Of a stretch of 15,340 nt of DNA, positions 2,244-7,900 are shown one piece after another. Position 1 is the first letter of the stretch. Every line of letters begins with the position of its first letter. The position numbers were made by a program, and so were the translations under genes. The notes under the pieces were generated by a model. It did no database searches and was not told the DNA's origin. It was given only the letters and a program-made list of their open reading frames with translations. Source of the stretch: Candidatus Micrarchaeota archaeon (lineage in GTDB: Archaea; Micrarchaeota; Micrarchaeia; Anstonellales; Bilamarchaeaceae); assembly GCA_040754495.1 (NCBI GenBank), contig JBFMCO010000029.1:1-15340 (forward strand). Reading direction: 5' to 3'.

Positions 2244-2501
2244 TATCCATACAGTATACCATTTCTAGTGTTTAATAACCATATCAGTAAACCTTCTTTC
2301 CATGCCCATGTGCATTTTTCGCCCCATGGTTCACCATAACAATATTGATTGGTAAAACCTGACCGCGCAATAGGGCTTACACGGGTTAAACTGGGCAAAA
2401 GAATGGAAAATGGGGATTTTGCTATTGTTTTGGAATACTGTGACGATGTTGAAATATTTTTGATTTACTTATATGATGTTATCCACAAGCTATTTTACAA
2501 T

Positions 2502-2987
2502 CTAATTTTTTGTTAAGTTTTCCTGCATAATTATCTTGCACTCTGTCAGTTTTACGGAAACGCAGTCCCTGTCCGAGTGCCCATCACAGACAACTTCGCC
2601 ATTGTAATATGTTGTGTGTGTCAAAAATCTAGAGCCATTTGAATAAGAATATGTAGCATAGCCTGATTTTTTATTATAGTTAGGATTACTGCTTTCTCTT
2701 TCGGTAAAAAGCCTGTATATCCAGATTTTGTTGTCTTTTGCTTCCTGAACCTTCTGGTCACTTACGAACATACCCGATGCATCTTGGAACCGACAATAAG
2801 ACAATTCGATATAACCTCTTTCATAGGAAAGTGATTTGTTTGCTACGTCGTCCGTCAAATGTGATTTGGCTCCGTTGTAACCGTCAAGAATATTCTGTGG
2901 GGCCCCCACGGTTGTGCATCCAATGGTTAAGAAAGCCAGAAAAATACAGGCGAAGCCTATCTTCGGGCACACCATGTAATCCCTCAT
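2502..2987 (-). CDS. Secreted lipoprotein-like hypothetical protein
   Basis: Signal-like KIGFACIFLAFLTIG followed by Cys (lipobox-like). Start is ATG 2987 or 2975; the 3050 start runs through the hairpin region. Confidence 0.7.
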   Translation of the reverse strand: MRDYMVCPKIGFACIFLAFLTIGCTTVGAPQNILDGYNGAKSHLTDDVANKSLSYERGYIELSYCRFQDASGMFVSDQKVQEAKDNKIWIYRLFTERESSNPNYNKKSGYATYSYSNGSRFLTHTTYYNGEVVCDGHSDRDCVSVKLTECKIIMQENLTKN

Positions 2988-3034
2988 ATCCTTTCGACTA
3001 CCTCTTTGATTATTTATCCCCTTCGCCCTCAACC

Positions 3035-3121
3035 ACTTAGCCGAAGGCAAGTTTTGTCAAGTCGGCCAACCCGCGGGGTTGGCAAACAGACTGTTTTGGG
3101 CCGCCTTTTCCTAAAAGGCGG
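3035..3121 (+). other. Hairpin cluster of junction D
   Basis: ACTTAGCC-GAA-GGCAAGT (3035-3052, one bulge), GCCAACCC-GCG-GGGTTGGC (3065-3083), CCGCCTTTT-CCT-AAAAGGCGG (3101-3121). Confidence 0.75.
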
Positions 3122-3146
3122 AATTCTCAATCTCTTTTATCTTTTC
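3122..3146. repeat. Junction repeat copy D (25 bp, AATTCTCAATCTCTTTTATCTTTTC)
   Basis: Exact 25-bp match to copies C and A; overlaps the last codons and stop of the Zn-ribbon ORF. Confidence 0.95.
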
Positions 3147-3306
3147 TGGAACTCTTTTTACCTTTCTTTTTTGGTGCTTTTTCCAGCTGGACAGGCAGCC
3201 CTTTATATCCGCATGAGCACTCTATCTGGCTAACCGGTCTTGAGCGGAATAAAGTCAGATGCTCTGCTGGATTAACTTCCTTCCTGCACTGCGGGCAAAT
3301 CTCCAT
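3127..3306 (-). CDS. Small Zn-ribbon protein (59 aa), absent from the ORF track
   Basis: Hand translation MEICPQCRKEVNPAEHLTLFRSRPVSQIECSCGYKGLPVQLEKAPKKKGKKSSRKDKRD; CxxC...CxCGYxG pattern and basic tail. Confidence 0.75.
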   Translation of the reverse strand: MEICPQCRKEVNPAEHLTLFRSRPVSQIECSCGYKGLPVQLEKAPKKKGKKSSRKDKRD

Positions 3307-3372
3307 GGTAATATTTCCCTCTGCCGGCTTTTATCTTTTTCTAAAGCAGGAAATCCCTGAGTTTGGGTCGCC

Positions 3373-3452
3373 CACGAGCCGGAGGCGAGTGCAACCGACC
3401 GTTTTGGGCCGTCTTTCGCGTCAGTGTGAGCCCGCAGGGCTCACCAACTGAC
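3373..3452 (+). other. Hairpin cluster of junction C
   Basis: CACGAGCC-GGA-GGCGAGTG (3373-3391) and GTCAGTGTGAGCCC-GCA-GGGCTCAC(CA)ACTGAC (3420-3452, 14-bp stem with a 2-nt bulge). Confidence 0.75.
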
Positions 3453-3479
3453 AATTCTCAATCTCTTTTATCTTTTCCA
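3443..3479. repeat. Junction repeat copy C (37 bp)
   Basis: ACCAACTGACAATTCTCAATCTCTTTTATCTTTTCCA, identical to 4916-4952. Confidence 0.95.
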
Positions 3480-3501
3480 AAAGAATTAAGGAATAGTAAC
3501 A

Positions 3502-3615
3502 CTAGCGATAGGCAAGCTCTTTCAGGACGGCTTTTTTGGCATTCATTATGTCCTTGACTACCTGTGAGTCTATGAAGACAGTCTCCTCTTTGCCTTTTTT
3601 GGTTTTTTTATCCAT
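3502..3615 (-). CDS. 37-aa peptide coupled to Doc, putative antitoxin (absent from the ORF track)
   Basis: MDKKTKKGKEETVFIDSQVVKDIMNAKKAVLKELAYR. Its start overlaps the Doc stop by 8 nt. The C-terminal LKELAxR helix resembles Doc-partner antitoxin tails. Confidence 0.65.
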   Translation of the reverse strand: MDKKTKKGKEETVFIDSQVVKDIMNAKKAVLKELAYR

Positions 3616-4090
3616 GTTTCCCACTTATCTCTTTTAGTAAAAACTCCTTTATAAGCCTTCGGAGTTCGTTTGGATCCTTGCCACCTTCCGCTAACCTCAC
3701 GATTTCCTCAGCTTCTTTGGGAGTAGAATCGAGTATAAACTCTTCCCTTGGCAAGAGGTTGATACTGAGCAAAAATAAAGCGCAAATATACGCTGTACTC
3801 TTGTTGCCTTCTGTAAACGGATGCTCGCATGCAATATAATAAAATGTCTCAGTAGCGACGTACAAAGCGTTCTCTCTTGGGTCAGTCTTATACTTATGCG
3901 GCCTATCTGTTAAGGTGTCGTATATATGCCGAATTACCCCCGGGTCCCGGATAGTGGTTGGATCATTTTTACCCATCGCTTTCCGGTCCTCGATGATTAT
4001 GTCGTGAATTAGGATTATTGCGCTTTCACTCAAAATAAGCGTACCGTTGGGAAGCCGCTTTATCTCCAAACGTCTTTCTTTATCTTCCAT
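3608..4090 (-). CDS. Fic/Doc family (death-on-curing-like) toxin
   Basis: Fic motif variant HPFTEGNKSTA, preceded by IRDPG and an A......I...HPF helix typical of Doc. Confidence 0.85.
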   Translation of the reverse strand: MEDKERRLEIKRLPNGTLILSESAIILIHDIIIEDRKAMGKNDPTTIRDPGVIRHIYDTLTDRPHKYKTDPRENALYVATETFYYIACEHPFTEGNKSTAYICALFLLSINLLPREEFILDSTPKEAEEIVRLAEGGKDPNELRRLIKEFLLKEISGKHG

Positions 4091-4095
4091 TTAAC

Positions 4096-4114
4096 CACGA
4101 GTCGCAGGCGAGTG
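4096..4114 (+). other. GNA-loop hairpin of junction B
   Basis: CACGAGTC-GCA-GGCGAGTG; 4095-4116 matches 3372-3393 at 20/22. Confidence 0.75.
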
Positions 4115-4128
4115 CATCTAACAAAAAA

Positions 4129-4152
4129 TCTCAATCTCTTTTATCTTTTCCA
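4129..4152. repeat. Junction repeat copy B (24 bp)
   Basis: TCTCAATCTCTTTTATCTTTTCCA, exact match to copies A and C. Confidence 0.95.
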
Positions 4153-4176
4153 TTAATCTCTTGGAAGTATCTTAAT

Positions 4177-4842
4177 CTATTGGTCAATCACGTCTGGAAT
4201 GGCTTTAATGAATTGCTCTATTACGGGTATAACTTTAGCTGGACCCCTTCCTTCCGTATGCTCAAAATATCCAGAGTCGTTCTTGCCGAATTCTTTTTCA
4301 ATCCCTACTTTCCAGTCTCCGTGTTTCTCGGTCAATTCTCTCAATAGTCTCTGCACCCTTCTCACTATAGGAATGTCATATCCCCTCTCTCCATTTTCAA
4401 AAACATATGTGCCGGTGCAGTAATTTATCCGTTTGCACAGATGTTCCGAACACCAGCCGGCCACTGTCTTTTTTGGAATCCCTTTTGCCAAAGCAAATTT
4501 TATAATCTCATTAATCGTCTTTTTTCCGCAATACTTAGTGTTATGAAGAAAGACTCTCCAGTTTCCATGTTCGTTATTCAGTTCTTCAATAAGCCTTTGC
4601 AAATCAATCAAAGTCGGACTCTCATTCCTTGATATTTTTCGTATTATATTCCTTGCCCTTCCGCTTAATTCGAACAGAGTGCCTTCCGTAGCTCTTTCCG
4701 CTTCCTTCCTTTTTGTTTCAAGATACACTTGAGAAGCCCGCCCTTCGCTGATTCCAAATCTCTTGGCGATAACTGAAAACTTAGTGGCTTCTTCCTCTCT
4801 TAATCTGAAGATTTTAAGATTACGCCGTCGGATGTCTTTCAT
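4177..4842 (-). CDS. Putative DNA-binding protein: sigma70 region 4-like HTH plus RNA polymerase alpha-CTD-like domain, with an internal repeat
   Basis: N-terminal FSVIAKRFGISEGRASQV (HTH). LFELSGRARNII...CGKKTINEI resembles the alpha-CTD/HhH pattern. aa 81-97 and 163-179 share 9/17 identities. Confidence 0.65.
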   Translation of the reverse strand: MKDIRRRNLKIFRLREEEATKFSVIAKRFGISEGRASQVYLETKRKEAERATEGTLFELSGRARNIIRKISRNESPTLIDLQRLIEELNNEHGNWRVFLHNTKYCGKKTINEIIKFALAKGIPKKTVAGWCSEHLCKRINYCTGTYVFENGERGYDIPIVRRVQRLLRELTEKHGDWKVGIEKEFGKNDSGYFEHTEGRGPAKVIPVIEQFIKAIPDVIDQ

Positions 4843-4915
4843 ATGTTCACTTTTATCCGTAATCTATAATTTAAATCAATCGTCTCAATCCTGATCGGGC
4901 TGGAAAACCGAGATT

Positions 4916-4952
4916 ACCAACTGACAATTCTCAATCTCTTTTATCTTTTCCA
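4916..4952. repeat. Junction repeat copy A (37 bp)
   Basis: Identical to 3443-3479; begins 13 nt after the RelE stop on the minus strand. Confidence 0.95.
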
Positions 4953-4965
4953 TCATTCTATTAGA

Positions 4966-5226
4966 TTATTGTTCTCTCAGCCATTTTTCATATTCCTTAT
5001 GATCTCCAACAAAATAAAACCGCCGGACCTTGCTATCTTCAAATGACTTGTAGCAGATCCGATACTGACCTACTTCCTCAACGAAGAAATCAACACCGAA
5101 ACGGAGATGGCGGCCAGGCAAACCCTTTTTTATCTGTTGGATCTTCTTCCAAATCCTTTTTTGGGTATCCGGACTGAGCTTCTCGAAATAGTAATCCCAT
5201 TTTGGATCATACTCCGCACTATACAT
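4966..5226 (-). CDS. RelE/ParE-family toxin
   Basis: 86 aa, basic. F.KL....QKRI.KKI..., GQYRICY and ...FVGDHKEYEKW are typical of archaeal RelE. Abuts the antitoxin stop (TAAATG). Confidence 0.85.
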   Translation of the reverse strand: MYSAEYDPKWDYYFEKLSPDTQKRIWKKIQQIKKGLPGRHLRFGVDFFVEEVGQYRICYKSFEDSKVRRFYFVGDHKEYEKWLREQ

Positions 5227-5502
5227 TTAGACATCTCTTAGATGCGGATATTTTTTCAAAACCTCCTCTTCACTAAGAACTTTTCTTTTTCCAGCAGCAA
5301 TCTCAGCATCTATTTTCTGCATCTTTTGAACCGCAAGTCTATCTAGTTCCTTCTCTTTGCTAAGGTGGTGCTCTCTGTAATCAAGCAAAGCAAGCCTGAT
5401 GGCCTCGGTCCGGCTTGCTGCCCTGCCGCTCCTGACTATCTCCTCGATAGTTTCGGCCACTACCCCGCTAAACTGTGCATGTATATTCATTGTACTTCCC
5501 AT
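5227..5502 (-). CDS. Ribbon-helix-helix (CopG/ParD-like) antitoxin
   Basis: MNIHAQFSG..AETIEEIVRSGRAASRTEAIRLAL is RHH-type; lies directly upstream of RelE. Confidence 0.8.
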   Translation of the reverse strand: MGSTMNIHAQFSGVVAETIEEIVRSGRAASRTEAIRLALLDYREHHLSKEKELDRLAVQKMQKIDAEIAAGKRKVLSEEEVLKKYPHLRDV

Positions 5503-5531: not shown

Positions 5532-5753
5532 TAGCTTATCTTAAACCTGATTTGGGAAAAATTGTGGTGGCGTTGATCTTTCAACCTGAAAATTGTGGAA
5601 AACAATTACTGAACCTTCCCCAAAACCGCCTTGACATTAATATGGGGGGTACCCGCCTGTTTTCGTCCGCTCCTGAGCGAAGCGTGTGCAGTTAATCGCA
5701 GTTTTGCAAAAGTAGCTTATCATATTCCTTTGGGTTTACAAAAAAAAGAAAAT

Positions 5754-5948
5754 TTACTGCTGTTTTGCAAGCAGTTCATCCATTTGCTTCATCATCGCGG
5801 CCTTCTGCTCTTCAGACATGGAAGCCAGCTTGTCGGCGTGCGCCTGCTGGGCGTGCTCCATGGCTTTCCCCCTTACTTCCTCTGCAGTTGCACCCTCGGC
5901 CACAAAATGGCACTCGGGGCTGCCTAATTCCGCGCAACTAAGTTTCAT
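5754..5948 (-). CDS. DUF1059-family small metal-binding protein
   Basis: MKLSC.ELG..C.F...G.T.EEV......HA...H pattern; GGTGA RBS upstream of ATG 5948. Confidence 0.85.
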   Translation of the reverse strand: MKLSCAELGSPECHFVAEGATAEEVRGKAMEHAQQAHADKLASMSEEQKAAMMKQMDELLAKQQ

Positions 5949-6011
5949 TTTACTCACCGGGGTGAGAAAGAACCGAACGTTTAAATGCGTTGCCCACCGT
6001 TTAATGGAATT

Positions 6012-6090
6012 TCCGTCGATTGTGGAAAACGAGGGCTGATTATCCGTCGATTGTAGGAGTTAACTGTCGATTTTTTCGTCCATTGTGGAA
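6012..6090 (+). repeat. Three phased 16-bp imperfect direct repeats
   Basis: TCCGTCGATTGTGGAA (6012), TCCGTCGATTGTAGGA (6043), TTCGTCCATTGTGGAA (6075); spacing 31 and 32 bp. Confidence 0.65.
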
Positions 6091-7378: not shown

Positions 7379-7900
7379 TTATAATCCGTGGCTATAGCCA
7401 TACTGCAGCGCCTCTTCGACTTCGCCGTAGGAGCCTTTCCACGACGTCACAAAGGCGAATAGGACGCTCAGGTACTTCTTGTTCGGCTTGAAGGGCACCT
7501 TGACCTTCAGGCCCAGCCTCCGGATTATCTCGTTATCGGTCTTTCCCCCGGCTCTCATCTTCCGGGTCATCTGGACAATCCGGTTCTGGTCGTAGTCTGA
7601 CGCCTCATAAAGCTCCACGATTCCTTCAATCTGGCATCCTACACGGGTATTAAGGATGAGATTGCACATCGGGCAGACCGTCGTCAGGTTGGTTTTCTTG
7701 TTGTTGCTCGAGTCGCCGTCCAAAAACCATATCGTCTGCCATTTCTCTGCATGGAAATCGCAATAGGTGCATTTGTAATGGTCTCTTTCAAGCACATATG
7801 CCCGCAGCCCGTCCATTTCCAGCGCGGTCAATCTGCGGGTATTCTGGGTCAATCCACGGTAATTGGATGACTCTGCATAGGTCGGGGTGAGTTTTTTCAT
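7379..7900 (-). CDS. HNH-fold Zn-binding protein lacking the catalytic His (DotN/IcmJ-like)
   Basis: VLERDHYKCTYC...LDGDSSNN...NL..VCPMC; the usual HH before xDGD is WF here. Confidence 0.75.
   Translation of the reverse strand: MKKLTPTYAESSNYRGLTQNTRRLTALEMDGLRAYVLERDHYKCTYCDFHAEKWQTIWFLDGDSSNNKKTNLTTVCPMCNLILNTRVGCQIEGIVELYEASDYDQNRIVQMTRKMRAGGKTDNEIIRRLGLKVKVPFKPNKKYLSVLFAFVTSWKGSYGEVEEALQYGYSHGL

Follow-up and report, generated by a model that had tools for sequence, protein, structure and literature searches.

What are the short hairpins that lie between the genes of an archaeal cassette island, and do they take part in cassette exchange? The island occupies approximately positions 2500-5500 of a 15.3-kb contig (JBFMCO010000029.1, C29 below), all 15,340 nucleotides (nt) of which were analyzed and are referred to here as the window; it belongs to a 1.63-Mb, 80%-complete assembly (GCA_040754495.1, G000 below). 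The island consists of tightly packed small genes on the minus strand, separated by four exact copies of a 21-nt core that occurs nowhere else in the genome, and hairpins lie in the DNA next to three of these cores. The host is archaeal, as TBP was found in the assembly and its close relatives carry the label Candidatus Micrarchaeota. An earlier note on this DNA had taken the hairpins for recognition signals that fold in single-stranded DNA (ssDNA) and serve enzymes of the integrase or HUH type. Our analysis points elsewhere: with a probability of roughly 0.7, the hairpins at the junctions were inserted as copies of a repeat family, built of hairpin modules, that spread as DNA across this genus of Micrarchaeota, and they have no role in cassette exchange.

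Junction hairpins belong to a dispersed repeat family

ARAGORN reported 29 tRNA genes in the genome, 23 of them with introns of 32-248 nt, and within these introns the hairpin units follow a recurrent order: a hairpin and CCAAAAC, then 9 nt, the middle hairpin and another 9 nt, and finally GTTTTGG and a hairpin. On its minus strand, junction 1 is collinear with the hairpin, linker, hairpin order of the introns and aligned over 63 nt with the intron of a tRNA gene on contig C58, giving a score of 80 compared with 15 ± 3 (maximum 30) for shuffled sequences. The hairpin at 3065-3083 aligned with the middle hairpin of the tRNA introns as well as with a site on the host's own contig C5. A hairpin-plus-tail unit like that at 3093-3121 ends most tRNA introns of the genome, and 27 genome copies of this unit were recovered at up to 6 mismatches, mostly inside or beside tRNA genes. 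The combination of a 9-bp T4/A4 hairpin with a GTTTTGG/CCAAAAC tail is represented by an exact member at 3093-3121 and a truncated one at 3401-3419, and it is missing from the copy at 4096. In a multiple alignment (A1), junctions 1, 2, and 3 stood in register with sequences from the host's own contigs C5, C50, C61, and C23 and from four other species.

The most distinctive component, which we call the G-A hairpin, has a CGAG block opposed to a second CGAG block, with Watson-Crick pairs enclosing the tandem G.A pairs on both sides. Copies were found in tRNA trailers on contigs C23, C31, C51, and C71, where the purine strand is antisense to the tRNA and the hairpin lies beyond a T5-T6 tract; in sense orientation behind tRNA genes of other species (L095, L105, and L118); behind a 5S rRNA gene (L057); and upstream of signal recognition particle (SRP)-like RNA (L051, L053, and L104). 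Another copy lies between co-directional protein genes at a site common to three species (C5, L050, and L054), at which the stems of the neighboring hairpin differ by compensatory changes. The occupied sites (tRNA trailers, 5S rRNA, SRP-like RNA, and ordinary gene spacers) correspond in part to what the earlier note had said would speak against its reading, namely the motif on both strands of intergenic DNA unlinked to the core. The family thus described consists of dispersed, short, imperfect palindromes arranged in mosaics with conserved linkers, and these alignments indicate that the junction hairpins are copies of it, found across the genus and mostly in or behind tRNA genes. To the tRNA intron units, the present analysis adds the G-A module itself and its presence at cassette junctions.

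Two further observations concern the tRNA neighborhoods. In several trailers (C23 10230-10440, C31 48640-48800, C51 62650-62880, L048, and L056), repeated partial tRNA 3' ends comprising the T arm and acceptor are interleaved with hairpin modules, as if remnants of integration events at tRNA genes had been stacked. Tyrosine recombinase genes also adjoin tRNA genes in several cases (C58, C46, and C44).

The G-A hairpin as a purine-strand fold under constraint

All five inverted repeats listed in the earlier note were located, with the loops that it gave for the plus strand (Table 1). The list was selective in one respect, because a sixth hairpin (3101-3121) whose plus-strand loop is CCT had been omitted from what was described as a set of GNA loops on that strand. 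The claimed strand specificity held for the two 19-nt copies at 3373-3391 and 4096-4114 and failed for the palindromes at 3065-3083 and 3420-3452, which fold equally well on either strand; for the latter, a DNA nearest-neighbor calculation gave one strand -13.3 and the other -13.5 kcal/mol (z about -5), and its 3' arm is part of a 37-nt repeat common to junction 4. The hairpin at 3035-3052, which had been proposed as a variant of the same motif, forms a one-base bulge fold on both strands and matched the intact G-A hairpin of contig C5 column for column in alignment A1, as would a decayed copy. The two 19-nt copies pair as C-G, A-T, C-G, G.A, A.G, G-C, C-G, and C-G, the seventh pair being T.G in the 4096 copy. 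As the earlier note had argued, they close only through the tandem G.A pairs of the plus strand, since the opposite strand presents T.C/C.T and converts the wobble to C.A.

Folding energies were of little help here. With nearest-neighbor sets that lack the special stabilities of such folds, the DNA fold of both strands that the earlier note had suggested as a check yielded no strand difference and placed the two G-A hairpins no better than shuffled sequences, while RNA parameters favored the purine strand by only 1.4-1.6 kcal/mol. The support for the purine-strand fold comes from covariation in the wider family and not from energy. A genome-wide strand bias could not be measured, because the exact motif CACGAG-N5-GCGAGTG has only two genome copies (3373 and 4096). 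The GCGAAGC at 5677-5683, which had been singled out as a mini-hairpin upstream of the array, is a chance 7-mer with 450 copies in the genome, compared with about 570 expected, and 6 in the window.

The covariation was assessed with a loose pattern (two CGAG blocks followed by GTTTT 10-11 nt on) that was present in 15 of the 39 other genomes of the genus. Nineteen copies defined by the pattern were fetched with their 5' flanks unseen at selection. The pair just outside the G.A block was Watson-Crick in 17 of these 19 (C-G in 8, G-C in 6, and A-T in 3), a level reached by none of 20,000 shuffles, and the two failing copies were chance matches in coding regions; the compensatory changes that the earlier note had asked for were therefore found at this position, in three pair types. 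The second outer pair was Watson-Crick in 11 of 19, versus 6.3 expected. Inner stems of 1-3 pairs varied in length and sequence and yet remained paired (C/G, CC/GG, CAC/GTG, and TC/GG). The loops were GAA, GGA, GCA, GCCA, and GATA, along with one AAA and one GAG, so that 18 of the 20 hairpins accepted as family members had a G...A loop closed by C-G, the AAA and GAG loops being the exceptions. Because the flanking pair covaries, the inner stems stay paired, and nearly all loops are G...A, the G-A hairpin is best regarded as a real fold of the purine strand only and under structural constraint. The 13-mer CGAGCGNAGCGAG gave 91 matches in the genus, many in coding DNA that lacked outer pairing; its reversed-pattern control overlaps the pattern itself, and the 13-mer was therefore used only as a source of contexts. 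At one contig end of the host (C28 30-70), two G-A hairpins stand in tandem, one with a GCAA tetraloop and the other with a GAA triloop.

The loop set also bears on the molecule in which the fold forms. Triloops dominate, and three of the four tetraloops seen were GNNA but not GNRA, so the set appears closer to the rule for DNA mini-hairpins (GNA and GNNA) than to the GNRA rule for RNA, and the comparison leans towards a DNA-level fold. A fold in ssDNA is favored by these loop rules and by the copies beyond terminators on the template strand, and a fold in RNA by the intron habitat of the family. Other assignments were also considered. No junction hairpin was reported on either strand as an intrinsic terminator, for which a G+C-rich stem and an immediately adjoining T run in the transcribed strand are required, in keeping with the earlier note's view that they are not RNA terminators. 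Flanked by Watson-Crick pairs on either side, the G.A block forms a symmetric 2x2 loop, with no three-base bulge of the kind found in a kink-turn (L7Ae site). Splicing of the junction 1 insert from mRNA through a bulge-helix-bulge formed by the core and the far side was rejected, as the two sides are not complementary.

Table 1. Hairpin modules, core copies, and cassette genes of the window
Feature	Positions	Strand	Description
Degenerate G-A hairpin	3035-3052	+	GAA loop; inner stem GCC-GAA-GGC kept; G-A block decayed to bulged stem
Perfect 8-bp hairpin, "middle" (M) module	3065-3083	both	GCG loop on +; equal fold on either strand
GTTTTGG tail and 9-bp T4/A4 hairpin	3093-3121	+	Hairpin at 3101-3121, CCT loop on +
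G-A hairpin	3373-3391	+	3 outer pairs, tandem G.A/A.G, 3 inner pairs, GGA loop
Spacer, GTTTTGG tail, truncated remnant of T4/A4 hairpin (3401-3419)	3392-3419	+	Aligned with C50, C61, and relatives (A1)
14-pair hairpin with 2-nt bulge	3420-3452	both	GCA loop on +
Second G-A hairpin	4096-4114	+	GCA loop; T.G wobble on +, C.A on -
A-rich tail after hairpin	4115-4129	+	Gene strand reads T6 then GTTAGATG
Junction core copy 1	3126-3146	+	Exact copy; context, outside hairpin family
Junction core copy 2	3457-3477	+	Exact copy
Junction core copy 3	4130-4150	+	Exact copy
Junction core copy 4	4930-4950	+	Exact copy; no hairpin module adjoining
GCGAAGC 7-mer	5677-5683	+	Chance occurrence, outside feature; no fold predicted
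RHH protein and small partner	~2500-5500 island	-	
HTH protein	~2500-5500 island	-	
Fic/Doc protein and 37-amino-acid open reading frame (ORF)	~2500-5500 island	-	
59-amino-acid ORF	~2500-5500 island	-	
Lipoprotein-like ORF	~2500-5500 island	-	Beside junction 1

The hairpins are not tied to cassette junctions

We compared the window with 14 core junctions elsewhere (itemized as two in G004, one in G007, two in G033, that of OY970229, a degenerate copy in G022, and six metagenome junctions). Twelve of the 14 were without a hairpin, the core being followed directly by the start codon of the next gene or by plain sequence; hairpin-free cores included both in G004, that in G007, the second copy in G033, those of OY970229 and G022, and five of the six from metagenomes. 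The single family-type module at a relative's core, in G033, faces the opposite way relative to that core. The hairpin-to-core distance varied from 15 to 73 nt, and junction 4 of the window (4843-4929) has no hairpin module. A stretch of 24 nt that holds hairpin 4096 was absent upstream of Doc in three relatives (G022, G010, and G024; alignment A2), such that the same site is occupied in the host and empty in close relatives. For junction 1, no empty-site comparison was available, as none of the 39 relatives carries the lipoprotein cassette beside it.

These data bear directly on the proposal that the plus-strand hairpins are ssDNA recognition signals of the cassette junctions for an integron-type integrase or an HUH enzyme. 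The purine-strand specificity of the fold and its agreement with DNA mini-hairpin rules (PMC13037366) are what one would want of such a signal, as are the presence of modules at three of the four window junctions and the location of all three on the strand antisense to the cassette genes, where integron attC sites fold. The same modules, however, were found in either orientation at many sites that have no core, and were missing from most cores elsewhere as well as from junction 4, and neither their direction nor their distance relative to the core is kept. The expected enzymes were also not seen: no integron integrase was detected in the assembly, whose completeness leaves the absence unproven (the best TIGR02249 match scored 37 bits versus a cut-off of 265), and Y1/HUH transposases (PF01797) gave no match in G000. 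Six generic tyrosine recombinases are encoded elsewhere in the genome. At junctions 1-4, we found no inverted pair of attC boxes, R'' being RYYYAAC and R' GTTRRRY, nor the L boxes and extrahelical bases that accompany them; two GTTRRRY-like heptamers do flank the hairpin of junction 3, in direct rather than inverted order. We consider a role in recognition of cassette junctions very improbable.

Alternative explanations

A function in RNA is unlikely in our estimation, although several observations suit it. The modules would be transcribed in cassette leaders (from the junction promoter to the start codon) or in neighboring RNAs, which they would stabilize or insulate, for example by damping translation of the Doc toxin, which starts on the minus strand 5 nt past the 4096 hairpin. 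As parts of tRNA introns, most family members are transcribed, and on the sense strand of the introns G-T pairs outnumber A-C pairs 24 to 11; the G-A fold has an energy of -7.0 kcal/mol with RNA parameters, and tandem G.A pairs set in CGAG are well known as a stable motif of RNA. On the other hand, orientation to transcription is mixed, triloops dominate, three of the four tetraloops fit GNNA but not GNRA, and gene-sense RNA from the window would bear the weak pyrimidine version (U.C/C.U, with C.A replacing the wobble). Four tRNA trailers of the host, moreover, have the purine version antisense to the tRNA and past its T5-T6 tract. Those same trailers lend some appeal to a host function in ssDNA, whereby the purine mini-hairpin on the template strand past a T-tract would help stop RNA polymerase or would mark a replication priming site: junction 3 and the trailers on C23, C31, C51, and C71 share the order gene end, T5-T6, and hairpin with the purine version on the template strand, and DNA mini-hairpins are described as pausing polymerases and as occurring at primase sites such as G4 ori and ssiA (PMC13037366). 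Other copies, however, are oppositely oriented to the neighboring gene (C5/L050/L054, L095, L105, L118, and L057). We know of no archaeal precedent for a polymerase stop or priming by such a mini-hairpin, and this explanation appears distinctly improbable. Hardly credible at all is a double-stranded operator, in which the inverted repeat with its two CGAG blocks would bind a dimeric regulator of the toxin-antitoxin cassettes. Palindromes are typical of operators and the 4096 copy does lie at the Doc promoter/start region, but the CGAG blocks are direct, not inverted, within the inverted repeat, as is needed for a G.A-paired hairpin and odd for a symmetric dimer; moreover, stem sequences covary freely with pairing alone being kept, and most copies are located away from toxin-antitoxin genes.

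We therefore prefer to view the junction hairpins as inserted copies of the dispersed repeat family. Family units are short hairpins joined by the conserved linkers CCAAAAC/GTTTTGG; such units compose most tRNA introns and also occupy tRNA trailers and ordinary spacers. Within the window, they fill the only free DNA of the island, the gap from core to next start codon. Junction 1 has an intron-like unit (left hairpin, linker, and middle hairpin) together with a G-A hairpin that has decayed; at junction 2, a G-A hairpin is combined with a linker, a tail, and a truncated hairpin; and junction 3 has a solo G-A hairpin. The G-A hairpin is an interchangeable module of the family, maintained as a purine-strand fold with outer Watson-Crick pairs, self-opposed CGAG blocks, 1-3 inner pairs, and a G...A loop. 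Its fold would matter when the DNA is single-stranded, most likely during the copying or persistence of the repeat itself, and would play no part in cassette exchange. Several points weigh against this interpretation. No enzyme or mechanism of spread was identified for the repeat family, target-site duplications were not seen at family copies, and the stems diverge greatly between copies, a degree of difference that suits long-standing copies kept by structural selection better than a recent copy-and-paste process. The sampled relatives are phylogenetically related, so the shuffle test of the flanking pair overstates independence. Furthermore, modules occur at 3 of 4 junctions in the window but at only 2 of the 14 elsewhere, and no other genome copy is as close to either intact G-A hairpin of the window as these two are to each other (17 of 19 positions identical); for these reasons, some local copying tied to junction turnover is possible.

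A more specific version, which we regard as rather unlikely, holds that the purine-strand G.A/GNA hairpin is the ssDNA form by which the tRNA-intron repeat family is recognized and copied, whether by a Y1/HUH-like, primase-like, or other enzyme. Y1 (PF01797) was found in 9 of 40 genomes of the genus, and the mean count of CGAGCGNAGCGAG, a 13-mer that also matches coding DNA, was 3.2 in Y1-positive genomes compared with 2.0 in Y1-negative ones. The flanks of the four TnpB loci of G000 were searched for hairpin modules, and none was found. If this version were true, the family would be an archaeal counterpart of the REP/RAYT system (see below) that creates spliceable introns and seeds cassette junctions. 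Apart from that possibility, the analysis dispels an attractive but mistaken connection of these hairpins with cassette exchange in an archaeal island, and it contributes a clearly delimited module to a family of repeats that seems to give rise to tRNA introns in DPANN archaea. One-strand G.A pairing gives each copy a strand, the orientation of which can be set against transcription and replication where genomes are complete. The asymmetry also suggests a single-stranded stage, and this would limit where to look for the way in which archaea gain tRNA introns.

Comparison with known systems

Related tRNA introns that recur in different tRNA genes of one lineage are known as the transposed tRNA intron families of Thermoproteales (Fujishima et al. 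2010, reviewed in PMC4090602), and Candidatus Micrarchaeum has disrupted tRNA genes and a broad-specificity splicing endonuclease (PMC3239211). Our family likewise has related intron sequences in many different tRNA genes, in the same host clade as the latter study, whereas its modules also lie outside tRNA genes, including at cassette junctions, and one of them is defined by one-strand G.A pairing. In their short imperfect palindromes with a built-in asymmetry that confers a strand, non-coding dispersal, mosaic arrays with conserved linker motifs, and stems evolving by compensatory change, the units resemble the repetitive extragenic palindromic (REP) sequences and bacterial interspersed mosaic elements (BIMEs) of bacteria and the REPINs, which are mobilized by RAYT Y1 transposases. 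They differ in having an archaeal host, in lacking a conserved GTAG head (alignment A1 has no GTAG column), and in building spliceable tRNA introns; no single-copy RAYT-like gene was found, and the Y1 family is confined to the minority of genus genomes given above, the host assembly not among them. Unlike IS200/IS605 ends, the modules do not flank the TnpB loci of the host.

The G-A hairpin shares with the DNA mini-hairpins d(GCGNAGC)/d(GCGNNAGC) a C-G closing pair and a GNA or GNNA loop, and with tandem sheared G.A in a CGAG context a self-opposed CGAG block. Melting temperatures of 70-76 °C have been compiled for the DNA mini-hairpins versus 39 °C for an RNA counterpart, and natural sites include the phage G4 ori, ssiA (CCGAAGG), and an N4 promoter (PMC13037366). 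Each of those is an individual site known to serve in priming or as a promoter, whereas the G-A hairpin is one component of a dispersed repeat, with a fold predicted from sequence. Like integron attC sites, the junction hairpins lie between cassettes and fold on the strand antisense to the genes, with strand choice set by unpaired or non-canonical bases. They contain no R''/L''/L'/R' boxes, measure 19 nt versus 57-141 nt, are not present at every junction, and occur far from cassette arrays. Rickettsia palindromic elements are similar in being palindromic repeats tolerated in many kinds of DNA, including genes, but they have another sequence and belong to another domain of life, and no G.A module has been reported for them.

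Setting of the cassette island

Outside the window, the core (L020 6041-6061 and 6579-6599, L029, and L121-L124) is in most cases only 3-4 nt away from the ATG that follows it, and approximately 15 further conserved bases (TCTAAAAGAAT...) precede it and take in the stop codon of the previous gene. In the window, 40-150 nt of inserted DNA separates each of the four cores from the next ATG. The core with its preceding conserved bases looks like a portable gene-start or promoter block as much as a recombination site. By eye, the A-rich tail at 4115-4129 may resemble the tail that follows G-A hairpins in tRNA trailers (C46, C31, C71, L101, and L117).

ARAGORN found no tRNA gene in the window, and the cassette array is therefore not inside one; an Rfam scan of the whole window at E values up to 1 returned a single chance match. 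The 37-amino-acid ORF after Doc (3502-3615, minus strand) is followed through three relatives (L078, L079, and L080), where it is conserved after Doc with the same C-terminal motif, and for this reason it is likely a real gene that would form an unusual toxin-first pair with Doc. On the minus strand at 2225-2510, about 250 nt past the last cassette are 80% identical to the same flank in relative G004 (L020 6905-7200). This stretch had no match in Pfam or Rfam and may mark where the variable island stops, whether as a conserved flank, a small gene, or an RNA. The glyoxalase-side flank of the island is likewise common to the window and G004.

Beyond the island, three 18-nt repeats are spaced 31-32 nt apart (5556-5605 and the 6010-6090 region), along with two more copies of ATTGTGGAAAAC, which has 8 matches in the window at two or fewer mismatches compared with 1.3 expected. 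The repeats around 5590-6090 resemble archaeal origin-recognition boxes; the sole Orc1/Cdc6 gene found lies on contig C14, not with these repeats. At the left of the window, where one of the small plus-strand genes encodes an Imm5-like immunity protein, the palindromic motif TTTAGAAT.TCTAA lies between such genes at 466-482 and 1176-1192 and recurs in a relative (L020, ~7585-7605), and a second shared intergenic motif, TTTTCAGGGCAGTTT, is present at 1222 and 1700.

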